Below the pieces are notes generated by a model that worked only from the letters and a program-made list of their open reading frames with translations, was not told the origin of the DNA and made no database searches. A stretch of DNA of 64,000 nucleotides from Thermodesulfovibrionia bacterium (GTDB lineage: Bacteria > Nitrospirota > Thermodesulfovibrionia > JACRGW01), in assembly GCA_919902655.1 (NCBI GenBank), contig CAKKRL010000162.1, forward strand, positions 251-64,250, in the 5' to 3' direction. Shown here piece by piece: positions 5,705-61,040 of this stretch. How positions within the stretch are numbered: the stretch's first letter is position 1; every line of letters begins with the position of its first letter. The position numbers and the translations under genes are program-made.

Positions 5705-6390
5705 GAAGAAATCCTCCCTTTTCTTATCATCTCCATACCATTTTCTCCGCAGTTAAAAAGGATATCTATGCAGGATAGGTTTGGTTCAAACCCTTCATAG
5801 AGCTGTTGATATACAGGGTGTTTAAAATCCTGGATAACCACCTCTATCCCTGCCCTCTCGAAGGCATCCATGCCCATATATTTCGGTCCGTCCTTGCCGG
5901 AAAGATAGGTATCAGCCCCTACCGACCCGCAGAGGTCTATCAGCCGGCCATCAGGTTCATCCCTCGTTTCAAATTCTGATGCGATAAAAATCTTTTTCTT
6001 TATTCCAAAGAGGTCTGTAAGCATCTTTATCAGAGTGATATTAATATCTACAAGTCTCTCCCAGTTCTTTCTGTATATATCTTCGAAATAAGGAAAATAT
6101 TTTATGAAATATGGCGTCCTTCTGTAATTTGTCTCTATCGCAGTTAAATGTTTCCTCCTCCAGTCTACTCCGTTATTTATCCTCACCTCATTAATCTTCT
6201 CAGGAAATCTGTAAAGAACAGGGACTGTTAACCACTGCCATCCCTGGGATGTTTTTATCCTGTTACGGTTCTGCCATTCATTCTTTTTATACTGGACATT
6301 GTCAAGAAGTATAAATACATCAGACCTGTCTATCTTATCTATATATCCGATCCATGGCATATACTGGGGCTGATGTATAGAGGCCATCAT
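5701..6390 (-). CDS. WbqC-family protein of unknown function, as found in O-antigen clusters
   Basis: The N-terminus MMASIHQPQYMPWIGY is the hallmark of WbqC-like proteins. Confidence 0.65.
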   Translation of the reverse strand: MMASIHQPQYMPWIGYIDKIDRSDVFILLDNVQYKKNEWQNRNRIKTSQGWQWLTVPVLYRFPEKINEVRINNGVDWRRKHLTAIETNYRRTPYFIKYFPYFEDIYRKNWERLVDINITLIKMLTDLFGIKKKIFIASEFETRDEPDGRLIDLCGSVGADTYLSGKDGPKYMGMDAFERAGIEVVIQDFKHPVYQQLYEGFEPNLSCIDILFNCGENGMEMIRKGRISS

Positions 6391-7955
6391 CCATCGAACC
6401 TCACAAAAATCGGATTGGTAATAAGTTGTTCACCAACAGCCAGTCGATAATATATCTTCTTTCCGGGTAGAAAATAATCGTCTTTGTATTTTATCATAAA
6501 ATCTTTCCTGGCAGAAAACGTTTCTTTGACCTCTCCATTCCGTATCAGGAAAATCTTTATTTCTTCTTTGGGCGGCTTTGGAAATTTTATATTTATCGTA
6601 ACCTCTATTCCTTCTCTGCTCTGCAACTCCTCTCCCATTGTCGCCTCTCCATCAGAGCTTCTTAGAGTAAAATCCTCAAGAATCGGTTTATCTATACCCC
6701 TTACCGCATAGGCCCTCCCCTTCTTTAATGCATCTAAAACCTCTTCTTCTTTAAAAACCTTAAGAAAAAATACGGTCTGCGTCATACCCATCCAGTCACC
6801 TTCTTTGTAATCAAGCTCCCCTATAGCCCATACAGGGCTATCCCTCTTACCTTCACAGTAATCCTTCAGAATCTGATCCCACAGTCCACCGGGTTTTCCC
6901 ATGATCTTGTATCCCTCCTCAAAGACAGCAAAGCCAGTGTATCCTTTTGTCTCCATGAGATCGTTGTAATATGGCGACGTACTTACTTTTACCTTCCCGC
7001 CTTCAAAGGCACCACCGGCTTCGTATTTTCCCTCTGCCTCAGGATGTGCCCAGTAGGTCAGGGCATTCTTCTTATTTGCATAATCTATCAGAAACTGGTA
7101 CGGCCCTGTACCCTTATCCCCGTGGTACTGGTTATAGATAGGCTCGCAGAATGGGAAATTATTAATGAGGAAGATGATACCCGATGTCAGGATAATTATA
7201 CCTGTTACAGAATATATCCTCCTTTTCTTTTTAATCGTAAATCCTCTGAGACGATAGACCCTTTCTCCTTTTTTCCTTAAGAGGATAACACCGGGGATAA
7301 AGACTGCTATGGGCCAGAGATTTATTATACAGAAAGGGCCTAATCTTAAAGGAAATCCATATCCCACAGAAGGGATACCATTATAATCCTCAGGACTCTT
7401 CAGGCCCAGGATAAGTATATGCTTATGCCAGTTATTAAGGGTCAGTTCTCTTTTTATAGGATTTCCCTCCCAGTAGTAAAAAGGCACAGCCTCTGCGCCA
7501 TGGAGTATGAGCATATCCGTATATCTCTTCCTTAATTCTTCGATGGTGTCTATATATCTCCCTGAACCGTATTCTCTTATCCCTCCCTTATCAACCCTCT
7601 TTTTTATTATCTTCCTCAGAAGTGGTAGGCCGTATTCAACCCTCATATTGTCATGATCAGTAATAATTGCGATTTTGAGACCTTGATCCCTTACCTTTCT
7701 CACCATCTCCTCTGGAGAAAGCGTGCCGCCTCCTATATTGGTATCGAGATGAATTACCCCCTCAACCCTCAGATATTCCGCAGCAGAGGATTCTGAAATC
7801 GTAAAGAAAAATATGAGAAAAAGAATCCCGAACCAGCCGAATCGATTTTTCCGTTTAAATCCCCCCCTGTCCCTCTTTAACCCCTCTATCTCCCCCCTTA
7901 GTAAGGGGGGAATAAAAGGGGGGTGAGGGGGGATTTTACATCTTTTTAAGGACAT
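6387..7955 (-). CDS. PHP-like metal-dependent phosphoesterase domain protein with internal TM segments. The annotated N-terminus is encoded by a palindromic repeat, so the true start is probably downstream.
   Basis: IHLDTNIGGGTLSPEEMV…KIAIITDHDNM resembles a PHP-domain N-terminus. Hydrophobic stretches sit mid-protein. The first ~35 codons overlap repeat family B and the small ORF at 7936-8115. Confidence 0.4.
   Translation of the reverse strand: MSLKRCKIPPHPPFIPPLLRGEIEGLKRDRGGFKRKNRFGWFGILFLIFFFTISESSAAEYLRVEGVIHLDTNIGGGTLSPEEMVRKVRDQGLKIAIITDHDNMRVEYGLPLLRKIIKKRVDKGGIREYGSGRYIDTIEELRKRYTDMLILHGAEAVPFYYWEGNPIKRELTLNNWHKHILILGLKSPEDYNGIPSVGYGFPLRLGPFCIINLWPIAVFIPGVILLRKKGERVYRLRGFTIKKKRRIYSVTGIIILTSGIIFLINNFPFCEPIYNQYHGDKGTGPYQFLIDYANKKNALTYWAHPEAEGKYEAGGAFEGGKVKVSTSPYYNDLMETKGYTGFAVFEEGYKIMGKPGGLWDQILKDYCEGKRDSPVWAIGELDYKEGDWMGMTQTVFFLKVFKEEEVLDALKKGRAYAVRGIDKPILEDFTLRSSDGEATMGEELQSREGIEVTINIKFPKPPKEEIKIFLIRNGEVKETFSARKDFMIKYKDDYFLPGKKIYYRLAVGEQLITNPIFVRFDG
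7861..7935. repeat. GC-rich palindromic repeat family B, copy 1 (ccccccctgtccc…cccccctta g taagggggg aataaaagggggg tgagggggg atttt)
   Basis: Contains the perfect hairpin CCCCCCTTA/TAAGGGGGG. A related copy sits at 35726-35808. Lies within the annotated N-terminus of the PHP protein. Confidence 0.6.
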
Positions 7956-20973: not shown

Positions 20974-21864
20974 CTACAGCGCCCTCTCTGCCTTTATAAC
21001 CACCTGACTCGCCATGGAAGGGAACGTTTCCCCTATAAGACACAGGAACATGAATATCCTTCTGTAAATTGTCTTATTCCTGGAATATAGATTGTTCAGG
21101 AAGTGATTCGATACAAGGTTCAACTCAACTGAAACAGGGCTGACAAACCCCCTCTTCGGTCTTTTCCTTTTGATTACTGCATAAAAGACCCTCGGTATAA
21201 CAGCTATTGATTTTGGTATTCTCACCCTTAATTTAAATCCTATCCCTTTTATCCCTGCCGTTTTAAAACCTGTTTTTCTCAGAAGGGATTTCAGCCTCCT
21301 CGGTGAGAATGTATGGAGGTGTTGATCCTTCAATATCTCACCTATATTATTTTCATAAAATAAGGGCGACGGCGTAGAGATGATCAGTGTACCACCTCTT
21401 TTTAGAACATGGTTGGAAGATGAGAGAAATCTCTCAGGTTCTATAAGGTGTTCTATAATCTCTGACGCTACGACATAATCAAAACACTCTCCCCTGAAAG
21501 GTAATTCCTCTGCATTTCCTACAACAAAATGTCCATTTTTATATGTTTCAGCACACCTCTTTATCCTCTCCAAGGAGATATCGAGAGCAGTCATCGCTTT
21601 TGCATCTTTCAGTAATAACCCGGCAAGTACTCCGTCGCCAGTACCGGCATCAAGAATATCCTTACCCGGAGAAATCATCAATTTTATCTCTCTCATCTGA
21701 CCTTCATACATTACCATAAATCTTGTAGGGTCTTTCACCTCATGCCCATCGGTTCCGTACTGCTCCAAGAGTATTGAGGTTGCTGCTCCATAGCGGCTAC
21801 TGTATTCGTAGAACTCTCTCAAGCGTTTTCTGATATTATCTTCTCCGAAGGATCCTGTGGACAA
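20974..21864 (-). CDS. Class I SAM-dependent methyltransferase
   Basis: ILDAGTGDGVLAGLL motif I. Confidence 0.7.
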   Translation of the reverse strand: MSTGSFGEDNIRKRLREFYEYSSRYGAATSILLEQYGTDGHEVKDPTRFMVMYEGQMREIKLMISPGKDILDAGTGDGVLAGLLLKDAKAMTALDISLERIKRCAETYKNGHFVVGNAEELPFRGECFDYVVASEIIEHLIEPERFLSSSNHVLKRGGTLIISTPSPLFYENNIGEILKDQHLHTFSPRRLKSLLRKTGFKTAGIKGIGFKLRVRIPKSIAVIPRVFYAVIKRKRPKRGFVSPVSVELNLVSNHFLNNLYSRNKTIYRRIFMFLCLIGETFPSMASQVVIKAERAL

Positions 21865-34493: not shown

Positions 34494-34748
34494 ATGGATA
34501 AACTTTTAAAGTTAGATAAAACAGGCGATTCAATACTTCTTAAAGAGATAAAAAAATCATTAGGCTTGAAACTTGATGATGAACTTTTCTTGTTCAGCGG
34601 AAAGGATTATCTGGTAATTAAAAAGGTTCAGAGACCTTCCCTTTCTGAGCGTTTTAAGAGCCTTTCTGAGAAGACAGAGAAACGATTTAAAAAAGAGGGG
34701 TTAAAAGAGGATGTGGTAGTTGAGGCTATTAAATGGGCACGAAGATAG
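34494..34748 (+). CDS. AbrB/MazE/SpoVT-type swapped-hairpin antitoxin-like protein
   Basis: LKLDKTGDSILLKEIKKSLGLKLDDELFLF…YLVIKK resembles an AbrB-type DNA-binding fold. Overlaps the truncated PIN ORF by 16 nt. Confidence 0.5.
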   Translation: MDKLLKLDKTGDSILLKEIKKSLGLKLDDELFLFSGKDYLVIKKVQRPSLSERFKSLSEKTEKRFKKEGLKEDVVVEAIKWARR

Positions 34749-34880: not shown

Positions 34881-34903
34881 CAAAACAAAGGAGGATTAGC
34901 ACT

Positions 34904-35071
34904 ATGACAAAAAAGGCATATGAAAAACCCAAGGTAAGTAAGGTACCTTTAAAGACATCAGAGGCAGTTCTGACTGCATGTAAAGGTCCAGGTTCAAGGG
35001 GCCCCGGTTCTCTCGTAGGAAATTGTAGAGGCACCGCAGGCCGTGACTGTTCCTCTTGGAGTAGGACATAA
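34904..35071 (+). CDS. 55-aa Cys/Gly/Ser-rich small peptide, a candidate RiPP precursor; not in the ORF track
   Basis: MTKKAYEKPKVSKVPLKTSEAVLTACKGPGSRGPGSLVGNCRGTAGRDCSSWSRT. SD AGGAGG 9 nt upstream and its own promoter. The listed antisense ORF 34843..35034 is probably spurious. Confidence 0.6.
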   Translation: MTKKAYEKPKVSKVPLKTSEAVLTACKGPGSRGPGSLVGNCRGTAGRDCSSWSRT

Positions 35072-35089
35072 ACCTATATCACCGTATCC

Positions 35090-36166
35090 TTGTTACTACT
35101 CAGAATCGCAGATATAAACCTTCTCTTTAAGTCTGATCTCAAAGGGCTAAAGATCGGCTATCCTCAAAAGAATTTTATTCATTCCACATTCCCTCAATCC
35201 TCTCCCCAAAAGGGAGTGGAGGCAAAAAAGAAAGTCCCCTCTCCCCAACGGGGAGAGGGTCAGGGTGAGGGGGAAATTATTGACTGCACCATATCTATAG
35301 AACACCACCCTCTACCCTTTAATATTAAAGATAAAGAGATCTTCAGCCATGCAGGACCCTGGAAACTTTTCAGGAACAGAAAAGGTTATAAGATTGCCTT
35401 CTTTTTCCCCGCTTTAAAGCCTGATTATTACATGCTTGCAGAATTTAAAAGGGATTTCTCAAGGGTAAGACTATATATAAAAGACGCGGATCTTCGCTAC
35501 GCTCAGAATGACAAGCGAAGGGCTCAGAATGACAACAAGAAGACCTTTATTATTTCCCATCCCCTTGACCAGCTTTTAGTCATCAACCTCCTCTCCCGTG
35601 GCAGAGGAGTAATGATACACTCCTGTTGTGTCAATGATAACGGAAGGGGTTTCCTTTATGCCGGGACATCTCGCTCTGGCAAGAGTACGACTGCGAAACT
35701 CTGGTTAAAGCAGACAAAACCCTCCGAATCCCCCCACACCCCACTTTGGAAAAGGGATAATCCCCCTTCCTCCCCCTTTATTAAAGGGGGAATAGAGGGG
35801 GATTTTAAAGATATGACAGGAGTGAAGGTTTTAAGCGATGACAGGATTATAATCAGAGAGTTTGATGATAAGATCTATGCCTATGGCACACCCTGGCATG
35901 GGGAGGTAAATGTCTGTGATCCTGGAAGGGTGGAGATAGAAAGGATATTCTTCCTTCAACACTCGACGAAAAACTATGTGAAGTCACTTCCTCCTGTGGA
36001 TGCAGCAACGAGGATGTTTGTCAGATGCTTCCCCACCTTCTGGGATAAGGAAGGTATGGCATTTACACTGAAATTCATAGATGAGGTGGTCAGGAAAGTC
36101 CCCTGCTATGAATTCGGATTCGTGCCGGATAAAAGTGCGGTCAATTTCGTTAGAGGGCTTCGCTGA
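35090..36166 (+). CDS. HPr kinase/phosphorylase-like P-loop kinase (HprK-related). Its N-terminal region carries three in-frame repeat-element insertions. The start is uncertain: the track lists TTG at 35090, and the first ATG is at about 35432.
   Basis: P-loop LYAGTSRSGKST (HprK Walker A pattern G-x-S-G-x-GKS) plus downstream DDRII…GTPWHGE. Repeat families A, C and B lie in frame. Confidence 0.5.
   Translation: MLLLRIADINLLFKSDLKGLKIGYPQKNFIHSTFPQSSPQKGVEAKKKVPSPQRGEGQGEGEIIDCTISIEHHPLPFNIKDKEIFSHAGPWKLFRNRKGYKIAFFFPALKPDYYMLAEFKRDFSRVRLYIKDADLRYAQNDKRRAQNDNKKTFIISHPLDQLLVINLLSRGRGVMIHSCCVNDNGRGFLYAGTSRSGKSTTAKLWLKQTKPSESPHTPLWKRDNPPSSPFIKGGIEGDFKDMTGVKVLSDDRIIIREFDDKIYAYGTPWHGEVNVCDPGRVEIERIFFLQHSTKNYVKSLPPVDAATRMFVRCFPTFWDKEGMAFTLKFIDEVVRKVPCYEFGFVPDKSAVNFVRGLR
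35190..35281. repeat. Palindromic repeat family A, copy 1 (tccctcaatcctctcccc … cccctctcccc aac ggggagaggg … gggtgaggggg), in frame in the HprK-like ORF
   Basis: Shares the core CCTCAATCCTCTCCCC…GGGGAGAGG with copies at 36449-36500 and 50519-50562. Confidence 0.6.
35501..35540. repeat. Repeat family C, copy 1: tandem gctcagaatgacaa(gcgaag)ggctcagaatgacaa, in frame in the HprK-like ORF (encoding AQNDKRRAQNDNK)
   Basis: A near-identical arrangement at 52165-52205 (ggactcggaatgacaagcaaaggactcagaatgacaa) is intergenic. Confidence 0.55.
35726..35808. repeat. Repeat family B, copy 2, in frame in the HprK-like ORF (encoding …SPHTPLWKRDNPPSSPFIKGGIEGDFK)
   Basis: aatccccccacacccc…atcccccttcctccccctttattaaagggggaatagagggggatttt aligns with the reverse complement of 7861-7935. 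Confidence 0.55.
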
Positions 36167-36188
36167 ATAAGTGAGGACAGGCGAGACG

Positions 36189-36261
36189 CCTGTCCTACCA
36201 ATACGGATGACGAAACAAGGAAAAAGTAGGTCAGGCGTCTCGCCTGACAAAGTGGAATCGC
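36189..36261 (+). terminator. Pair of near-identical inverted hairpins (ggacaggcgagacgcctgtcc … gtcaggcgtctcgcctgac); terminator/attenuator-like
   Basis: Stems of 9 bp and 8 bp with 3-nt loops, about 40 nt apart. They are reverse complements of one another. Confidence 0.4.
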
Positions 36262-36276
36262 TCAATTTAGGTTAAT

Positions 36277-36831
36277 ATGAAACCCGACCTCCAGACTATA
36301 ACATCCATAATCCTTGATGAAGGATACTATGCTGCTTTACCCACAATAGGCCCATCTATGTACCCTGTTATTAGAGCAGGCGACAAAATCTATGTTGAAT
36401 CCCTTATGGGAAGGACGCCTGAAACTGGAGATATTGTACTCTTTAAATCCCCCTCACCTCAATCCTCTCCTCTACGAGCCATGGCCCCAAGGGGAGAGGA
36501 AGTAAGTGTAGAGTCCTCTCTCTCTAATAGAGAAGAAGTAATTATGGTATGCCACAGGCTTCTGAAGATATTCAAGAAGGATGGTACTACTTATTATCAA
36601 ACAAGAGGAGATGCCTATTTCTATAAAGACATACCTATAACATATGACCAGATTATCGGAAGGGTTGTAAAGGTTGAACGGTCTGTAGTATCTTTGCCAA
36701 GGAAGATCCTTTTGACTTTAAACCCCTTCTTAGGAAAATTTACCATACTGAATGCAGCTATAATTACTGTATTGGTATGGATTAAAAAGGCTTTAGTAAA
36801 AAATAACCATTTGTTTATCGGTTATTTTTAG
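36277..36831 (+). CDS. S24/S26 (signal peptidase I / LexA-like) serine peptidase-fold protein with a C-terminal TM helix and a repeat-encoded insertion
   Basis: PTIGPSMYPVIRAGDKIYVE (the GxSMxP nucleophile region of S26/S24). Insertion …SPSPQSSPLRAMAPRGEEVSVESS… is encoded by repeat family A. Confidence 0.45.
   Translation: MKPDLQTITSIILDEGYYAALPTIGPSMYPVIRAGDKIYVESLMGRTPETGDIVLFKSPSPQSSPLRAMAPRGEEVSVESSLSNREEVIMVCHRLLKIFKKDGTTYYQTRGDAYFYKDIPITYDQIIGRVVKVERSVVSLPRKILLTLNPFLGKFTILNAAIITVLVWIKKALVKNNHLFIGYF
36449..36500. repeat. Repeat family A, copy 2, in frame in the S26-like ORF (encoding SPSPQSSPLRAMAPRGEE)
   Basis: ccctcacctcaatcctctcc…ggggagagga. Same reading frame (PQSSP) as copy 1. 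Confidence 0.55.
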
Positions 36832-40091: not shown

Positions 40092-40948
40092 AGTGAAACC
40101 CTTTCTCCATAATCCCTCAGCGTCTCTTCCCATTTCCTCATCCTGTATCCAGTCAGCTTAAAATATCTGTCATTGCTCAATACAGAATATGAAGGCCTCT
40201 TCGCAGGTCTTTTCAGCTCACCGGATTTTATCGGTATAACATTCACGCCCTTTATCCCCTTTATTCTTATTATCTCTTTCGCAAAATCATACCAGGAACA
40301 TTCCCCTGAATTACTGCAATGGACAATACCCGCTGCATCTGAATCAATCAACCTCTCTATTGATTCTGAGAGGTCTACAGTATAAGTGGGTGAGCCTGTC
40401 TGGTCATCCACAACCCTTATTTCATCTTTTTCATTCGATAACCTCAGGATCGTATCAACAAAATTCCTTCCGTTTTTACCGAAGAGCCATGAGGTCCGTA
40501 TAATAAGAGTCTGGAGTCTGGAGTCTGGAGTCTGAAGTCTGGAGATTTCCTGCTCTCCTTCAAGTTTGGACTGTCCGTATATATTTATTGGCCTTGGCTC
40601 ATCATCCTCTTTATATGGTTCCTTCTTCTCTCCGTTAAAGACATAATCTGTACTGATGTGTATGAACCTTGCATTCACTTCATAACATCCTGTTGCCACA
40701 TTTCTCGCCCCACCCCTGTTCACTTTAAATGCCACTTCCCTCTCTGTCTCGCAGGCATCAACATCTGTGAATGCAGCAGTATTTATAACAAGTTCGGGAA
40801 TTATTTTTTTTATTCCCCTTATAGTCTCTGCCTCGTCCGTAATATCGAAATCTTCAACATCAACACCTTTTACATCATTCTTTATAGAAAGCCTTTTTAC
40901 AAGATCAGTTCCAAGCATCCCCTTTGCACCTGTCACAAGAATCCTCAT
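40088..40948 (-). CDS. rfbD: dTDP-4-dehydrorhamnose reductase
   Basis: MRILVTGAKGMLG…, …RTSWLFG…, and a C-terminal pattern typical of RfbD. Contains an in-frame heptamer-repeat insertion (EISRLQTPDSRLQT). Confidence 0.8.
   Translation of the reverse strand: MRILVTGAKGMLGTDLVKRLSIKNDVKGVDVEDFDITDEAETIRGIKKIIPELVINTAAFTDVDACETEREVAFKVNRGGARNVATGCYEVNARFIHISTDYVFNGEKKEPYKEDDEPRPINIYGQSKLEGEQEISRLQTPDSRLQTLIIRTSWLFGKNGRNFVDTILRLSNEKDEIRVVDDQTGSPTYTVDLSESIERLIDSDAAGIVHCSNSGECSWYDFAKEIIRIKGIKGVNVIPIKSGELKRPAKRPSYSVLSNDRYFKLTGYRMRKWEETLRDYGERVSL
40508..40550. repeat. Tandem heptamer (GAGTCTG)x5 within rfbD, in frame
   Basis: gagtctggagtctggagtctggagtctgaagtctggag read directly. Translates on the minus strand to EISRLQTPDSRLQT. 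Confidence 0.7.
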
Positions 40949-41970: not shown

Positions 41971-42000
41971 TTTAATTATCGAAGACCCGACCTATAGGGC

Positions 42001-42065
42001 GGATTTTGGATTTTGGATTTTGGATTTTAAATCTCCAATCCGCAATCTGAAATCCAAAATTGATA
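42001..42065. repeat. (GGATTTT)x4 tandem heptamers followed by their complementary arm (aaatctc caatccg caatctg aaatcca aaat), at the rfbB/rfbC junction
   Basis: Read directly. Confidence 0.65.
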
Positions 42066-45777: not shown

Positions 45778-47148
45778 TCACACCCTCAGCCTCTCCACAT
45801 CCATACCGAATCCTTTAACCTCTCCCACAGTATATAGGGAGCCTGTAATACATATAAGATCCCGACTGCCTGCTTTACCCATTGCATACTCAATGGCCTC
45901 GTTTACTCCCTTTATAGCCATTACATTCGGATTAAACGCCTCTGCCTCAACCGCAAGAGATTCAGGTGAAGCAGCCCTCTCATAGTCCACTGTTGTCACT
46001 ATCACCTCAGATGCAATGGGTGCAAGGACCCTGAGGAATCCCCTTACATCCTTATCCTTCATCATACCTACTATCAAAAATAACCTACCGTGCCCGGGGA
46101 GAAATATCTCTTCAAGTGATTTCTTAAGAGAACGTGCGGCTCCTTCATTATGTGCACCATCGAGGATAACTGTTGGGTTTCTGGATATTATTTCGAGCCT
46201 CCCGTCCCACCTGGCCTCTTTAAGTCCCTTCCTTACCATCTTCTCTTCTATTTTAATTTCATTACCGATTACCTCTGTAGTAGCAACTGCCAGTGAGGCA
46301 TTCGTTATCTGATGTGCACCTAACAGAGGAATTTCAAGACCTTGGTATATCTTTTTTATTCCATAATAATCAAAGACTTGAGTCTGGAGTCTGGAGTCTG
46401 GCCCGCCTTGCTTCTCCGTAGGATCCTGTGGAGCGGAGCGAGGCCGGGGAGCCTGGAGTCTTGAACCCTCTGTCCTAAAATCCCTTCCTGATATATATAG
46501 TTTAGACCCCATATCTTTACATTTATCTTCTATCAACTGCCTGACCTCAGGCAGATTATCTGCCATAACAACAGGGATTCCCTCCTTTATGGTTCCTGCT
46601 TTCTCTATCGCTATCTCGGGAAGGGTTACACCGAGGAATTCCTGATGGTCATAACCGATATTTGTTATAACAGAAACCAAAGGGGTTATCACATTCGTAG
46701 CATCGAGCCTTCCACCCATACCTACCTCTATTACTGCTATGTCAACATCTTCTTCTGCAAAGTATTTAAAGGCAATTGCTGTGGTAAATTCGAAAAAAGT
46801 GGGTGTAATACATTTGATATTTGAGATTTGAGATTCGAGATTCAAAGTCATCTCTGACACCCTTTCTTCCTCAATCGGCATACCGTTTACCCTTATCCTT
46901 TCTGTAAAGCTTACAAGGTGTGGTGAGGTATAAAGGCCAACCTTCATTCCTGAACCCTTAAGTATAGATGCAATCATTACTGCGGTTGATCCTTTACCAT
47001 TTGTCCCGGCAATATGGATTGATTTAAATCGCCTATGGGGATTCCAGAGGATACCCATCAAAGAGAGTGTATTATCCAGTCCTAACTTTATCCCGTATTT
47101 CTGCAGACTGTAAAGGTAATCAACCGCCTCTTTATAACCCATACACAC
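45778..47148 (-). CDS. folC: Bifunctional folylpolyglutamate synthase / dihydrofolate synthase
   Basis: HIAGTNGKGSTAVMIASILKGSG P-loop and Mur-ligase-like layout. Carries two in-frame tandem-repeat insertions. Confidence 0.8.
   Translation of the reverse strand: MCMGYKEAVDYLYSLQKYGIKLGLDNTLSLMGILWNPHRRFKSIHIAGTNGKGSTAVMIASILKGSGMKVGLYTSPHLVSFTERIRVNGMPIEEERVSEMTLNLESQISNIKCITPTFFEFTTAIAFKYFAEEDVDIAVIEVGMGGRLDATNVITPLVSVITNIGYDHQEFLGVTLPEIAIEKAGTIKEGIPVVMADNLPEVRQLIEDKCKDMGSKLYISGRDFRTEGSRLQAPRPRSAPQDPTEKQGGPDSRLQTQVFDYYGIKKIYQGLEIPLLGAHQITNASLAVATTEVIGNEIKIEEKMVRKGLKEARWDGRLEIISRNPTVILDGAHNEGAARSLKKSLEEIFLPGHGRLFLIVGMMKDKDVRGFLRVLAPIASEVIVTTVDYERAASPESLAVEAEAFNPNVMAIKGVNEAIEYAMGKAGSRDLICITGSLYTVGEVKGFGMDVERLRV
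46374..46475. repeat. Composite element in folC: (GAGTCTG)x3, then a GC-rich palindromic core, then ctggagtct; in frame (encodes SRLQAPRPRSAPQDPTEKQGGPDSRLQT)
   Basis: Read directly. Same heptamer and the same reading frame as the rfbD copy. Confidence 0.6.
46806..46850. repeat. Tandem heptamers (atttgag/attcgag) in frame in folC (encodes LNLESQISNIK)
   Basis: tttgatatttgagatttgagattcgagattcaaagtc read directly. Confidence 0.5.
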
Positions 47149-49572: not shown

Positions 49573-50373
49573 ATGCAAAATGTTAAATGTGAAATTACTA
49601 AAAATATCAAACTCATACTCGAATACGACGGTACAAATTATTCTGGATGGCAGATGCAGAAAGGCGCAGAGAGGTCGATCCAGAAGATTCTTCAGGATTG
49701 CATAAAAAAGGTTTCGAAGGAAAAAATAAAGCTCGTTTCCTCCGGGAGAACCGATGCAGGTGTCCATGCCTTAGGGCAGGTCGCTAACTTCAAAACAGAA
49801 AGCAGAATCGGCGGGGATATATGGAGAAATGCCCTTAATGCCTGTTTACCGAGAGATATAAGGATCATTGATTCAGAAGAGGTGAACATCTCTTTTCATT
49901 CACGCTATAATGCAAAGAAAAAGATATATTCGTATATAATCCTTAATCAGGAATCTCCGTCAGTCTTCCTCAGGAATTATGTCTGTCATATCCCTGTCCC
50001 TCTCGATTTAGAAAAGATGAAAAAGGCATCAAATAAACTTCTGGGAGAGCATGATTTCTCCTCTTTCCGCGCATCCTCCTGTGGTGCCAAAAGGCCTGTG
50101 AGAGAAATTATAGATATTAGTATCGATGAAAGAAGAACAGCGCTGATTCCTTGGTTACCCTTTTCACCTGAGGGGAATTTTATAACTATAACAATAGAGG
50201 CAAATGCCTTCCTTCATCACATGGTGAGGAATATTGTGGGGACACTGATAGAGATAGGCAGGGGCAGATTCAGACTTGAAAGAATGGAAGAGATTCTTAA
50301 GGCGAGGGATAGGACTAAGGCAGGCCCCACAGCCCCGCCACAGGGCCTTTTCCTTGTTAAGGTCAAATACTAA
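49573..50373 (+). CDS. truA: tRNA pseudouridine(38-40) synthase
   Basis: LEYDGTNYSGWQMQ…SGRTDAGVHALGQVANF catalytic Asp motif. Confidence 0.85.
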   Translation: MQNVKCEITKNIKLILEYDGTNYSGWQMQKGAERSIQKILQDCIKKVSKEKIKLVSSGRTDAGVHALGQVANFKTESRIGGDIWRNALNACLPRDIRIIDSEEVNISFHSRYNAKKKIYSYIILNQESPSVFLRNYVCHIPVPLDLEKMKKASNKLLGEHDFSSFRASSCGAKRPVREIIDISIDERRTALIPWLPFSPEGNFITITIEANAFLHHMVRNIVGTLIEIGRGRFRLERMEEILKARDRTKAGPTAPPQGLFLVKVKY

Positions 50374-50568
50374 CTACTCACGGCATGGCAGTTCGCCGCG
50401 AGGCCTTCCTTGTTTTATCAGACGACACAAGCACCTTAAATTACTTCCCCTCCGATTTCGAATCAATCAACCTGTTGAAATAGTCCTCTTTTGTCACCCA
50501 AATTCATTTCATGGTCTTATCCCCTCACCTTCATCCTCTCCCCTTAGGGGAGAGGGGTGGGTATGAGC

Positions 50569-50594
50569 GCCGTTAGAGGAAATCCTCTAACGGG
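50569..50594. terminator. Perfect 11-bp stem hairpin (ccgttagagga aat tcctctaacgg), a bidirectional terminator between truA and the convergent minus-strand gene
   Basis: Read directly. Immediately follows the family A palindromic repeat at 50519-50562. Confidence 0.55.
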
Positions 50595-50604
50595 GTAAAC
50601 CAAA

Positions 50605-51072: not shown

Positions 51073-52179
51073 TTACACCTTCTTTCCGACAATAACAGCC
51101 TCGTTTCCATTTGCAAAAAGATAAACCTCTGTCTTCATCCCTACACGATGAAACTCGGCCTCTATCTCTTCAGGCATGAGGAAATGATTTCCCTGAATAT
51201 GTTCTGCAAGGTTCTGGAATACCATCCCTTTCTTCATCGGGTCACGCAGTTCAGAACGGTCCTTTGGCCAGTTAGGTTCCCATATTACTGCTGAACCGCC
51301 AGCCTTGAGGTGTTCCTTTAAAATACGAAACACATCCTCTTTCTTATCCCATACATGGTGCAAGGCACGGTTCATAGCGATTAAATTAGCAGGTTCGCTA
51401 GCAGAAAAATGGTAGATATCACCATTCATAAATTTCAATCTATCACTCAGGCCATTGTCCTGTGCAATCTTTGTGGCCTGATTAATATTCTCTTCAAAAC
51501 CATCAAGCCCTATCCCCCTGAGATGAGGAAATCGTGTTACAATCCTTCTCAGATACCACCCGTTTCCACAACCAAGATCGATAATTAGACCTCCTTTCTC
51601 ATCTGTCTCTCTGTACACCGGCACATTCGGAAGTATCTGTTGTTCAAATACTCCACTGAACATGGCTTCAAGCATCGGTCCGAACAGGGGCAGGATACTC
51701 GTTCTCTCTGCCAGTACCATTTCACCCGGACGTTCACCGCTTCTCATTAAAGATGCCGCCCTTTCACACATATGTGCAGAAAGCACAGACTGAACTGAAA
51801 AAGGCATCGCAGTTCCGGGTGTCTCAGCAATGAAGGAACTTCCAATATCTGTAAGACTGAATTTCCCATCACTCTCGTCCAGAAGACCGAACGCATAAGC
51901 AGCATCACACCAGCGATTCAGATAATCTCTATCCAGTCCTGTTTTCCCTGCCAGTTCGTCAGGTGTAGCCTTTCTATCCCTATTTAATACAGAAAAAAGA
52001 TTATTCGATATTCCGATAAATGCTATATTAAGCATCATCGCCCCCTGCATTTGTGAAATTATCTGTTTACGCAATTCCTCTGAAACACTCATAGATTTTT
52101 CCTCCTGTTGAGATTTTTCATGCCGAGCAAAAAAAATGAGATTCCTCCTCCCCATTCCTATCTGGACTCGGAATGACAA
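51073..52179 (-). CDS. Class I SAM-dependent methyltransferase with an N-terminal winged-helix/dimerisation domain (O-methyltransferase-like). The likely true start is MSVSEEL at about 52092.
   Basis: LIIDLGCGNGWYL motif I. The N-terminal ~90 aa look like the dimerisation domain of plant/bacterial O-MTases. Confidence 0.65.
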   Translation of the reverse strand: MSFRVQIGMGRRNLIFFARHEKSQQEEKSMSVSEELRKQIISQMQGAMMLNIAFIGISNNLFSVLNRDRKATPDELAGKTGLDRDYLNRWCDAAYAFGLLDESDGKFSLTDIGSSFIAETPGTAMPFSVQSVLSAHMCERAASLMRSGERPGEMVLAERTSILPLFGPMLEAMFSGVFEQQILPNVPVYRETDEKGGLIIDLGCGNGWYLRRIVTRFPHLRGIGLDGFEENINQATKIAQDNGLSDRLKFMNGDIYHFSASEPANLIAMNRALHHVWDKKEDVFRILKEHLKAGGSAVIWEPNWPKDRSELRDPMKKGMVFQNLAEHIQGNHFLMPEEIEAEFHRVGMKTEVYLFANGNEAVIVGKKV

Positions 52180-52205
52180 GCAAAGGACTCAGAATGACAA
52201 TCAAG
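52165..52205. repeat. Repeat family C, copy 2 (intergenic)
   Basis: ggactcggaatgacaagcaaaggactcagaatgacaatcaagg. Confidence 0.5.
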
Positions 52206-60685: not shown

Positions 60686-60931
60686 ATGGCAGCAGAAGAA
60701 AAATCGATTGAGGAAAAGGTAAGGAAGATAATTTCAGATCAGTTAGGAGTTGACGCTGAAGAGGTCACTCCGGATGCCTCATTTGTAGATGATTTGGGGG
60801 CTGACTCTCTGGACACGGTTGAACTCGTCATGGCCTTCGAGGAAGAGTTTCATATCGAGATCCCTGACGAAGATGCAGAGAAGATAGCTAAGGTTCAGGA
60901 CGCTATCAATTATATTAAGGATAAAATGTGA
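60686..60931 (+). CDS. acpP: Acyl carrier protein
   Basis: [20 protein letters not shown] (phosphopantetheine Ser). SD gggaggtg upstream. The track ORF starts 12 nt earlier, at 60674. Confidence 0.9.
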
Positions 60932-60954: not shown

Positions 60955-61040
60955 CGAACAACTAATAAAATCCCCCTCAATTCCCCTTCCTGCCTGTCGG
61001 CAGACAGGTTTCAAAGGGGGGTGGAGGGGTTTTTTTAAAA
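60955..61040 (+). terminator. Nested GC-rich palindrome after acpP (cccctcaattcccc…cctgcctgtcggcagacagg…aaggggggtggagggg TTTTTTT), intrinsic-terminator-like
   Basis: Inner 8-bp stem cctgcctg/cagacagg, outer C-rich/G-rich arms, then a T7 tract. Read directly. Confidence 0.55.

Follow-up and report, generated by a model that had tools for sequence, protein, structure and literature searches.

The DNA described here is a stretch of 64,000 nucleotides (the window; 43% GC) from contig CAKKRL010000162.1 of an uncultured Nitrospirota bacterium, and the element in question is a short palindromic repeat, family A, whose nucleotide motif marks it as the known BoxC element, also called PIT or TMECO. Copies of it are embedded in two neighboring genes, one encoding a member of the ScmC family and the other a peptidase of the S24/S26 type, and a further copy lies in an intergenic spacer. 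The host genes and the repeat units are as follows.

35090 to 36166, plus strand: host gene 1, HprK/P-like P-loop protein from the ScmC family (PF27840), part of a SynChlorMet-like radical-SAM cassette.
35190 to 35281, plus strand: copy 1, composite insert (A1, about 12 nt, A2), in frame in the ScmC/HprK-like gene.
35192 to 35224, plus strand: unit A1, degenerate BoxC-type unit with a C-rich arm, an AAAA loop, and a G-rich arm, within the ScmC/HprK-like gene.
35235 to 35272, plus strand: unit A2, perfect BoxC/TMECO three-block motif CCCTCTCCC-CAACG-GGGAGAGGG-TCA-GGGTGAGGG.
36277 to 36831, plus strand: host gene 2, S24/S26-type peptidase (Ser/His), nearest to archaeal-type signal peptidase I.
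36449 to 36540, plus strand: copy 2, degenerate BoxC unit CCCCTCACC-TCAA-TCCTCTCC, a 20-nt loop and GGGGAGAGGA, plus a 36-nt extension, in the S24/S26-like gene.
50519 to 50567, plus strand: copy 3, intergenic, nearly symmetric BoxC unit.

A preliminary description of this DNA had reported the repeat in both genes and in the spacer, an observation that is confirmed at all three loci by motif, repeat search, and profile. The core CCTCTCCCC-N3-8-GGGGAGAGG occurs twice in the window (35238-35258 and 50535-50555) and in none of 100 dinucleotide-preserving shuffles. The repeat search recovered 35236-35272 and 50521-50557 as 37-nt arms that are 86% complementary, and it paired 35192, 36457, and 50528 as direct copies. 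An nhmmer profile of 146 cross-phylum copies found four units at the three loci and none elsewhere in the 64 kb (E = 3e-10 to 3e-5), with A2 as the top match of the window (E = 3e-10), A1 as a weak match (35192-35216), and copies 2 and 3 matched over 36450-36511 and 50521-50567, respectively. Since the profile recovers two oppositely oriented units in copy 1, about 12 nt apart, this copy is a composite, and it is predicted to form a single long hairpin (-46 kcal/mol, z = -3.65); the predicted structures at the repeat loci reach -46, -22, and -28 kcal/mol with z = -2 to -3.7. The BoxC-type elements have 54% to 71% GC (71% in A2) vs 43% for the window as a whole. Rfam, applied at its gathering thresholds, gave no RNA family match anywhere in the window.

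Both coding copies read CCT CAA TCC TCT CC, that is P-Q-S-S-P, and translation of both confirmed that this frame is free of stop codons. Within the window A1 is translated as F-P-Q-S-S-P-Q-K-G-V-E and A2 as P-S-P-Q-R-G-E-G-Q-G-E-G-E, and the peptide stretch that spans the element in the predicted translation is PQSSPQKGVEAKKKVPSPQRGEGQGEGE. Copy 2 encodes SPSPQSSPLRAMAPRGEEVSVESSLSNREEVI; its motif part covers 36449-36511, and the 36-nt piece that follows, to about 36540, is bounded by a 7-nt direct repeat (GAAGTAA) that belongs to that piece only. Copy 3 has truA (49573-50373) on one side and a convergent methyltransferase-like gene (51073-52179) on the other. The palindrome beside it (50571-50596), described earlier as a terminator hairpin, received no intrinsic-terminator call in the terminator scan. 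Copy 3 itself was considered as a terminator as well and rejected, with no call in the scan and no T-run.

The family already has a name. Holder et al. (2015; PMC4666352) describe the sequence as BoxC, alias PIT elements or "TMECO," with the consensus 5′-CCCTCNCCC-N3-6-GGGNGAGGG-N3-GGGNGAGGG. Positions 35237-35271 fit this consensus exactly, as the single match in the window, with no match in 100 shuffles, and copy 3 fits the published pattern if a second spacer of 4 nt or one mismatch is allowed. When membership is defined by the three-block motif with one mismatch allowed, copy 2 and A1 are recognized only as degenerate units, via the profile. According to the 2015 paper, Escherichia coli K-12 has 23 BoxC copies, every one of them intergenic, and 3610 copies are spread over 262 proteobacterial genomes; in vitro, the isolated strand folds into an intrastrand triplex, for which no footprint was found in vivo; neither promoter or terminator activity nor a linkage to transposons, phages, or plasmids was found; and BoxC/TMECO sites in E. 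coli are associated with elevated local rearrangement between strains (PMC4666352).

One genome per bacterial species was scanned with the pattern CCTCACC-N2-8-CCTCTCCCC-N3-6-GGGGAGAGG, and at least 120 genome stretches contain this core pattern, with 146 copies in those 120 loci. The hosts among the matches listed belong to the Proteobacteria (alpha-, beta-, gamma-, and deltaproteobacteria), Planctomycetota, Acidobacteriota, Rokubacteria, Nitrospirota, Omnitrophota, Chloroflexota (an Anaerolineae host), and Atribacterota. A cross-phylum copy used as query found matches in 5426 of 5426 complete E. coli genomes, at a median of 17 places per genome, and at least 120 stretches of viral or proviral contigs in IMG/VR match the core pattern (loci L132-L211). 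Because of the exact consensus match and the wide occurrence across phyla, family A is, by its motif, the BoxC/PIT/TMECO element, already known and not lineage-specific. In-frame insertion of such an element in this lineage had been thought notable. As a family the repeat is not lineage-specific or notable, since E. coli and 262 proteobacterial genomes were already known to carry it and it was found here in many phyla and on viral contigs. As side observations, the frequency of the core on viral contigs contrasts with the 2015 paper, which found no association of the element with phages or plasmids, and 377 of the 88,773 matched places in E. coli are on plasmids. The occupied and empty forms at E. 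coli ytfQ-ytfR, compared in the search for a target-site duplication, differ by a complex 170-bp indel containing a repetitive extragenic palindrome (REP) and not by a clean insertion.

The presence or absence of the inserts was then compared among orthologues. In an alignment of 120 ScmC sequences, the columns of the N-terminal insert and those of a second, unrelated insert (the AQND insert, listed below) are filled in 0 of the 119 aligned homologues, and the DNA alignment has clean gaps at the N-terminal site in the orthologous loci L004, L001, and L130. The site is occupied in L127, where the ScmC frame extends upstream of the called start and carries the A1 + A2 composite at the same position, with a perfect A1 and an A2 that lacks its left arm and is split where a 66-nt repeat from a different family is nested in it. 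For the S24/S26-like gene, the site is empty in 8 of 12 aligned sequences (the native turn is SGEN in L128 and SNGQ in L129) and is occupied in L001, L127, and P0123 (JGI), in a structurally different way in each; L004 equals the window. The inserts at this site span 17 to 39 residues, from a 17-aa half unit in L001 to a 39-aa symmetric unit with a second hairpin in L127. The repeats in the two genes are proven by these empty sites to be true in-frame insertions relative to the orthologues, which bears out the earlier claim of insertion into real genes. The shuffles exclude chance similarity or native low-complexity sequence, as do the contrast in GC and the orthologues with empty sites. An assembly artefact is ruled out too, since insert-bearing alleles are present in two independent ENA assemblies from Hainich groundwater well H51, namely L131, which holds both host genes, and L004, which holds only the S24/S26-like gene copy with the insert.

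The ScmC-like protein has 358 residues vs about 285 to 300 in homologues, and its profile and AlphaFold model resemble HPr kinase/phosphorylase and PEPCK. It keeps all family-invariant residues, including the Walker A GKS and the LSDD motif, and copy 1 adds a net 22 residues between the strands at residues 30-33 and 66-72. Confidence in the model (mean predicted local distance difference test score, pLDDT, 83; predicted template modeling score, pTM, 0.82) is low only at three inserts, residues 31-60, 131-150 (the AQND insert), and 208-243, which are coil or, in the case of the AQND insert, a low-confidence helix between confident strands and helices; pLDDT is 52 to 64 in the copy 1 insert vs more than 90 in its flanks. 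The S24/S26-like protein has 184 residues vs about 147 to 159 in insert-free homologues, with 32 extra residues where those have a short native turn. The insert cuts its family match into two parts, and all invariant residues, including Ser/His, are kept. The model of this protein has a mean pLDDT of 62, with values below 50 exactly at residues 62-86, between the strands at 53-59 and 88-101.

The two coding insertions had been suggested to be recent. Neither is demonstrably so in the alignments, because both are common to lineages that are about 25% to 35% divergent. The S24 insert is common, in rearranged forms, to orthologues with 62% to 78% protein identity, and the ScmC composite is present in L127 at about 75% DNA identity; with ScmC flanks that are only about 75% to 87% identical in DNA between the window and L127, this insertion does not look recent either. 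A neighbor-joining tree of the S24-like proteins, with low support, favors neither a single ancestral insertion with a loss nor two gains.

The preliminary description had also stressed the common reading frame of the two coding copies. Both do read P-Q-S-S-P, a coincidence that carries little weight: copy 1 is stop-free in two of its three sense frames and copy 2 in one of six, the frame in use, so that the common frame is largely the effect of a stop-codon filter. Translation of homologous A1 DNA, moreover, gives PLTSVLSPKGRG in L127 but FPQSSPQKG in the window; the flanks are in frame, and the frame is restored downstream. The peptide, to judge from these different frames, is therefore not the conserved entity.

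In-frame copies are found in other proteins too. The 146 copies in the 120 sampled loci were screened for long flanking open reading frames (ORFs) and then with Pfam, and 7 of the 120 loci, other phyla included, have an in-frame intragenic BoxC that is flanked by Pfam domains or splits them. The BoxC-bearing proteins include Mfd, LigA (the element splits its adenylation domain), VgrG, an AMP-dependent ligase, a metallophosphoesterase, an Fe-S/CCG protein of a Nitrospirota metagenome-assembled genome, and an ABC-F ATPase with two in-frame copies, one of them reading PSPQSSPRRGEE. An eighth candidate, the long ORF of L095 from a genome with 42% GC, has weak Pfam matches only. A report of in-frame insertion for BoxC was not found in the literature.

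We consider it probable that the repeat, known and either selfish or structure-prone, inserted into the two host genes as a passenger and was tolerated there, in analogy to Rickettsia palindromic elements (RPEs). The element is a G/C-rich repeat of about 35 to 50 bp made up of three blocks, one C-rich, one G-rich and complementary to it, and one mirror-related and G-rich (or C-rich); it forms a hairpin, and its copies have come to be embedded in two neighboring genes of a 43% GC Nitrospirota. These copies may persist because the insert length preserves the frame, the frame in use is stop-free, and the sites are predicted surface loops, namely the connection between strands of the N-terminal domain in ScmC and the turn ahead of the catalytic His strand in the S24/S26-like protein. 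The Pro/Ser-rich and then Gly/Glu-rich peptide would be a by-product with no sequence-specific role, and the DNA palindrome would be the entity that is propagated and conserved. After insertion the copies would decay and be locally rearranged, through loop expansion, arm deletion, and nesting of other small repeats.

Several points weigh against this reading. The ScmC N-terminal insert is patchy, being present in the window and L127 and missing from L001, L130, and the 5′ part of L004, a distribution that needs losses or recombination; sliding identity for a recombined N-terminal segment common to the window and L127 is no more than 87% vs 83% in the first 54 nt. The L127 ScmC gene has no canonical start codon near the conserved N-terminus, and some insert-bearing alleles may for this reason be decaying. 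A target-site duplication was not found at the ScmC and S24 junctions, which are blurred by about 25% flank divergence, and neither an IS-type terminal inverted repeat nor a mobilizing gene or transposase was identified for family A. Finally, we infer the neutrality of the inserts for protein function from structure prediction and conserved residues.

The most novel alternative, which we regard as rather unlikely, holds that BoxC is a pan-bacterial, phage-borne selfish element that is still inserting, or is copied via a trans-acting mechanism, and that seeds disordered loops in many phyla, with the present cassette as a hot spot of nesting and mosaicism. Loops could be seeded recurrently in this way, in Mfd, LigA, VgrG, and ABC-F as well as in ScmC and the signal-peptidase-like protein, because two of the three sense frames are stop-free.

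The next alternative, decay under relaxed selection, involves three further repeats of the same locus, which belong to families other than family A.

35480 to 35540, plus strand: second, unrelated in-frame repeat (the AQND insert), two GCTCAGAATGAC units, read ..LRYAQNDKRRAQNDN...
35715 to 35815, plus strand: third in-frame insert, a C-block/G-block palindrome, ATCCCCC..TCCCCCTTT-ATT-AAAGGGGGA..GGGGGAT.
36172 to 36248, unstranded: REPIN-like doublet, two inverted GTAG-headed palindromes GTAGGNCAGGCGTCTCGCCTGNC.

The third insert lies directly after the Walker A helix (pLDDT 42 to 47), a site at which 5 of 120 ScmC family members, the window and four others, have long inserts; the orthologues P0003, P0005, and P0006 have differing inserts there, and that of P0003 contains a BoxC-type SPLPLWERVGVRG. 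The REPIN-like doublet occupies the 110-nt spacer between the host genes (-39.8 kcal/mol, z = -6.85; 0 in shuffles) and has the same sequence in L004. The ScmC-like gene is preceded upstream by genes for an ABC-2 permease, a PqqD-like protein, and a radical-SAM/SPASM enzyme, which match SynChlorMet-cassette models (ScmD, ScmE/F) below the family cut-offs. A 55-aa ORF, MTKKAYEKPKVSKVPLKTSEAVLTACKGPGSRGPGSLVGNCRGTAGRDCSSWSRT, directly precedes the ScmC-like gene (34904-35071, plus strand); compared with its counterpart in L004 (...TACKGPGNRGPQIGSCKAIQGICYTRTRT), the leader is conserved and the C-terminus is variable and contains Cys, and from its sequence it is likely the precursor peptide of the radical-SAM cassette. 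Relatives differ in gene content here: L001, L127, and L129 have variable extra genes between the radical-SAM and ScmC genes (HEPN/nucleotidyltransferase pairs, Uma2), L127 has a DUF559 gene after ScmC, and the window has an 84-aa ORF (34494-34748) between the radical-SAM and ScmC genes. For small insertions, whether of genes or of repeats, this cassette is a hot spot. The double occurrence of family A within a candidate cluster for a ribosomally synthesized and post-translationally modified peptide (RiPP) had been singled out as notable; the link appears incidental, though the locus does gather small repeats.

Some of these families recur elsewhere. The GCTCAGAATGAC-unit repeat (reverse complement GTCATTCTGAGC), whose in-frame copy in the ScmC-like gene reads ...AQNDKRRAQNDN..., has a second copy at 52160-52200, at or just past the 5′ end of the minus-strand ORF 51073-52179, and a related repeat of CCTGAGC type is nested within the BoxC element of L127. 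The C-block/G-block family (...TCCCCCTT-loop-AAGGGGGA...) has copies at 35715-35815, at 7860-7940, which is the 5′ end of the minus-strand ORF 6387-7955, and at 60970-61036, where a nested palindrome and a T-run make it terminator-like. The last of these is downstream of ORF 60687-60931, which we take to be acpP-like from its sequence and its position ahead of fabF. Homologues of FabF put the window among uncultured Nitrospirota, with every named match from Nitrospirota or Thermodesulfovibrionales and 83% identity for the best of these. Other repeats of the window are a hairpin at 285-339, formed by a G15 run and a C12 run 5 nt apart (TAAAAAAGGAGGGGGGGGGGGGGGG / CCCCCCCCCCCCTCCTC), (GGAGTCT)n heptamer runs at 40500-40548 and 46366-46400, and a palindromic unit of 21 to 30 nt, TCCACAGGATCCTTCGGAGAA, present three times (1229-1249, 21841-21861, and 46408-46437).

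Under relaxed selection, the SynChlorMet-like cassette would be dispensable, its genes would be gathering junk on the way to becoming pseudogenes, and the in-frame status of the repeats would be transient. Five small-repeat insertions within 1.4 kb (three unrelated ones in a single 1-kb gene, the spacer doublet, and the insert in the next gene) fit such a course, as do the plasticity of the locus in relatives, with its inserted HEPN/nucleotidyltransferase, Uma2, and DUF559 genes, and the L127 allele with no obvious start codon. Both ORFs are intact, however, and retain every family-invariant residue (Walker A GKS, LSDD, peptidase Ser/His), and insert-bearing alleles have stayed open across lineages that are about 25% to 35% diverged, which requires continued selection for an open frame. 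We therefore think decay a clearly unlikely explanation.

Tolerated insertion was weighed also against functional recruitment at the RNA or DNA level, for example in mRNA stability or processing, in translational pausing at the Shine-Dalgarno-like GGAGAGG/GGTGAGG arms, or as recombination hot spots that diversify the cassette. The two groundwater assemblies bear on the last of these. L131, a strain contig 99.3% identical to the window, has an extra BoxC copy in a spacer that is free of BoxC in the window; the copies observed are the four units at three loci in the 64 kb and this one in L131. Between about 35640 and about 36900, L004 shows 100% identity to the window; upstream (L004:1-650 vs window 34900-35640) the identity is about 70% to 80%, and neither the family A nor the AQND insert is present there. 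The contig, whose coverage is 4, either arose by natural recombination or joins two co-occurring strains in a chimeric assembly. The strain-level difference in L131 itself consists of a complete divergence of an intergenic spacer (L131:12030-12144 vs window 41972-42065), to be read with caution at a contig end: the L131 spacer has the BoxC copy and another C/G-block palindrome, and the window spacer has a (GGATTTT)n-type palindromic repeat.

Recruitment would find support in the strong predicted structures at the repeat loci, in the mosaic of L004 (100% identity 3′ and about 75% 5′ of about 35640), in the difference adjoining a BoxC copy in L131, and in the link of E. coli TMECO sites to elevated local rearrangement (PMC4666352). 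The hints of local instability or recombination in L131 and L004 fit this published association, and they come from low-coverage contigs or contig ends. Against recruitment, published tests for promoter and terminator activity and for an in vivo triplex footprint were negative (PMC4666352), copy 3 is no canonical terminator, about 100 nt separate the mosaic junction from the nearest repeat in a contig of low coverage that is possibly chimeric, and the arms are decayed in older copies. On balance, recruitment seems to us quite improbable. As for adaptive inserted peptides, that is, flexible Pro/Ser-Gly/Glu linkers or interaction loops of a RiPP-like pathway, the inserts are indeed kept in frame in several lineages and the same two or three sites are occupied repeatedly, but the frame in which homologous DNA is read differs between the window and L127, orthologues have inserts of very different length (17 to 39 aa) and sequence, the great majority of family members are insert-free, the DNA element also lies between genes and within unrelated proteins of other phyla, and the insert regions are predicted to be disordered, all of which makes this explanation very hard to credit.

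The reading of the copies as tolerated insertions of BoxC has consequences beyond this locus. An anonymous repeat family of an uncultured Nitrospirota is now tied to a named and biophysically characterized element. Since the 1990s it has been asked what this element does and how it spreads. The published description of BoxC is too narrow, with K-12 copies that are always intergenic and a count confined to proteobacterial genomes: the motif now extends across at least eight phyla and viral contigs, and in 7 of 120 sampled loci (about 6%) it lies in frame within bona fide proteins. For annotation, BoxC accounts for recurrent PSPQ...GEG low-complexity segments and for spurious small ORFs in metagenome-assembled genomes. 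The presence/absence alleles in a natural groundwater population could be used for working out how BoxC moves.

Among known systems, REPs are extragenic by definition. Family A resembles REPs and REPINs, which are associated with RAYTs, IS200/IS605-like transposases (PMC3733652), in being short, G/C-rich, imperfectly palindromic, dispersed, and often arranged as inverted doublets, but its copies have no GTAG or CGTC head and a RAYT was not found. The genuine GTAG-headed doublet at 36172-36248 belongs to another family. Miniature inverted-repeat transposable elements, or MITEs, typically exceed 100 bp in length, with terminal inverted repeats derived from insertion sequences and with target-site duplications, and Delihas (2007) reportedly dealt with intragenic ERIC. 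Like intragenic bacterial MITEs (Coxiella QMITEs, PMC5896051; ERIC; Anabaena), family A is a small non-coding repeat occasionally fused in frame with host ORFs, yet neither a clear target-site duplication nor a terminal inverted repeat of IS type was identified for it.

With BoxC itself, the copies share the nucleotide motif (exact fit at 35237-35271), the occurrence, at three loci within the 64 kb, as single units or inverted "palindromic" pairs, the association with local sequence variability, and the lack of a linked transposase. They differ from the reported E. coli K-12 copies, which are intergenic, in that two of the three loci are within genes and in frame, and the host is a 43% GC Nitrospirota, not a proteobacterium; the spacers between the blocks are also richer in AT (TCAA, TCA), and a symmetric form with four blocks is common. 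The triplex is known from in vitro work on the isolated strand, whereas the values for the window copies are Watson-Crick hairpin energies only. Earlier studies of BoxC/PIT elements are said to be those of Bergler (1992) and Hoyne et al. (2000).

There is a parallel in behavior with RPEs, which are about 100 to 150 bp long and AT-rich, encode a conserved peptide, and were reportedly studied by Ogata et al. (2000, 2002); to our knowledge they are restricted to Rickettsia. Compared by description only, family A differs from them in its units of 35 to 50 bp, which are G/C-rich, cross-phylum, and unconserved as peptide. The analogy, drawn already in the preliminary description, is nevertheless apt: as with RPEs, palindromic repeats that also have intergenic copies lie in frame in unrelated genes, and at fold-compatible sites in both of them. 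RPEs have been interpreted as selfish DNA tolerated in proteins (review PMC10969869), and in-frame small palindromic repeats are known from Rickettsia RPEs, intragenic ERIC, and Coxiella QMITEs (PMC10969869, PMC5896051). BoxC at this locus is thus a known repeat in an unusual, though not unprecedented, place, and its context is new.

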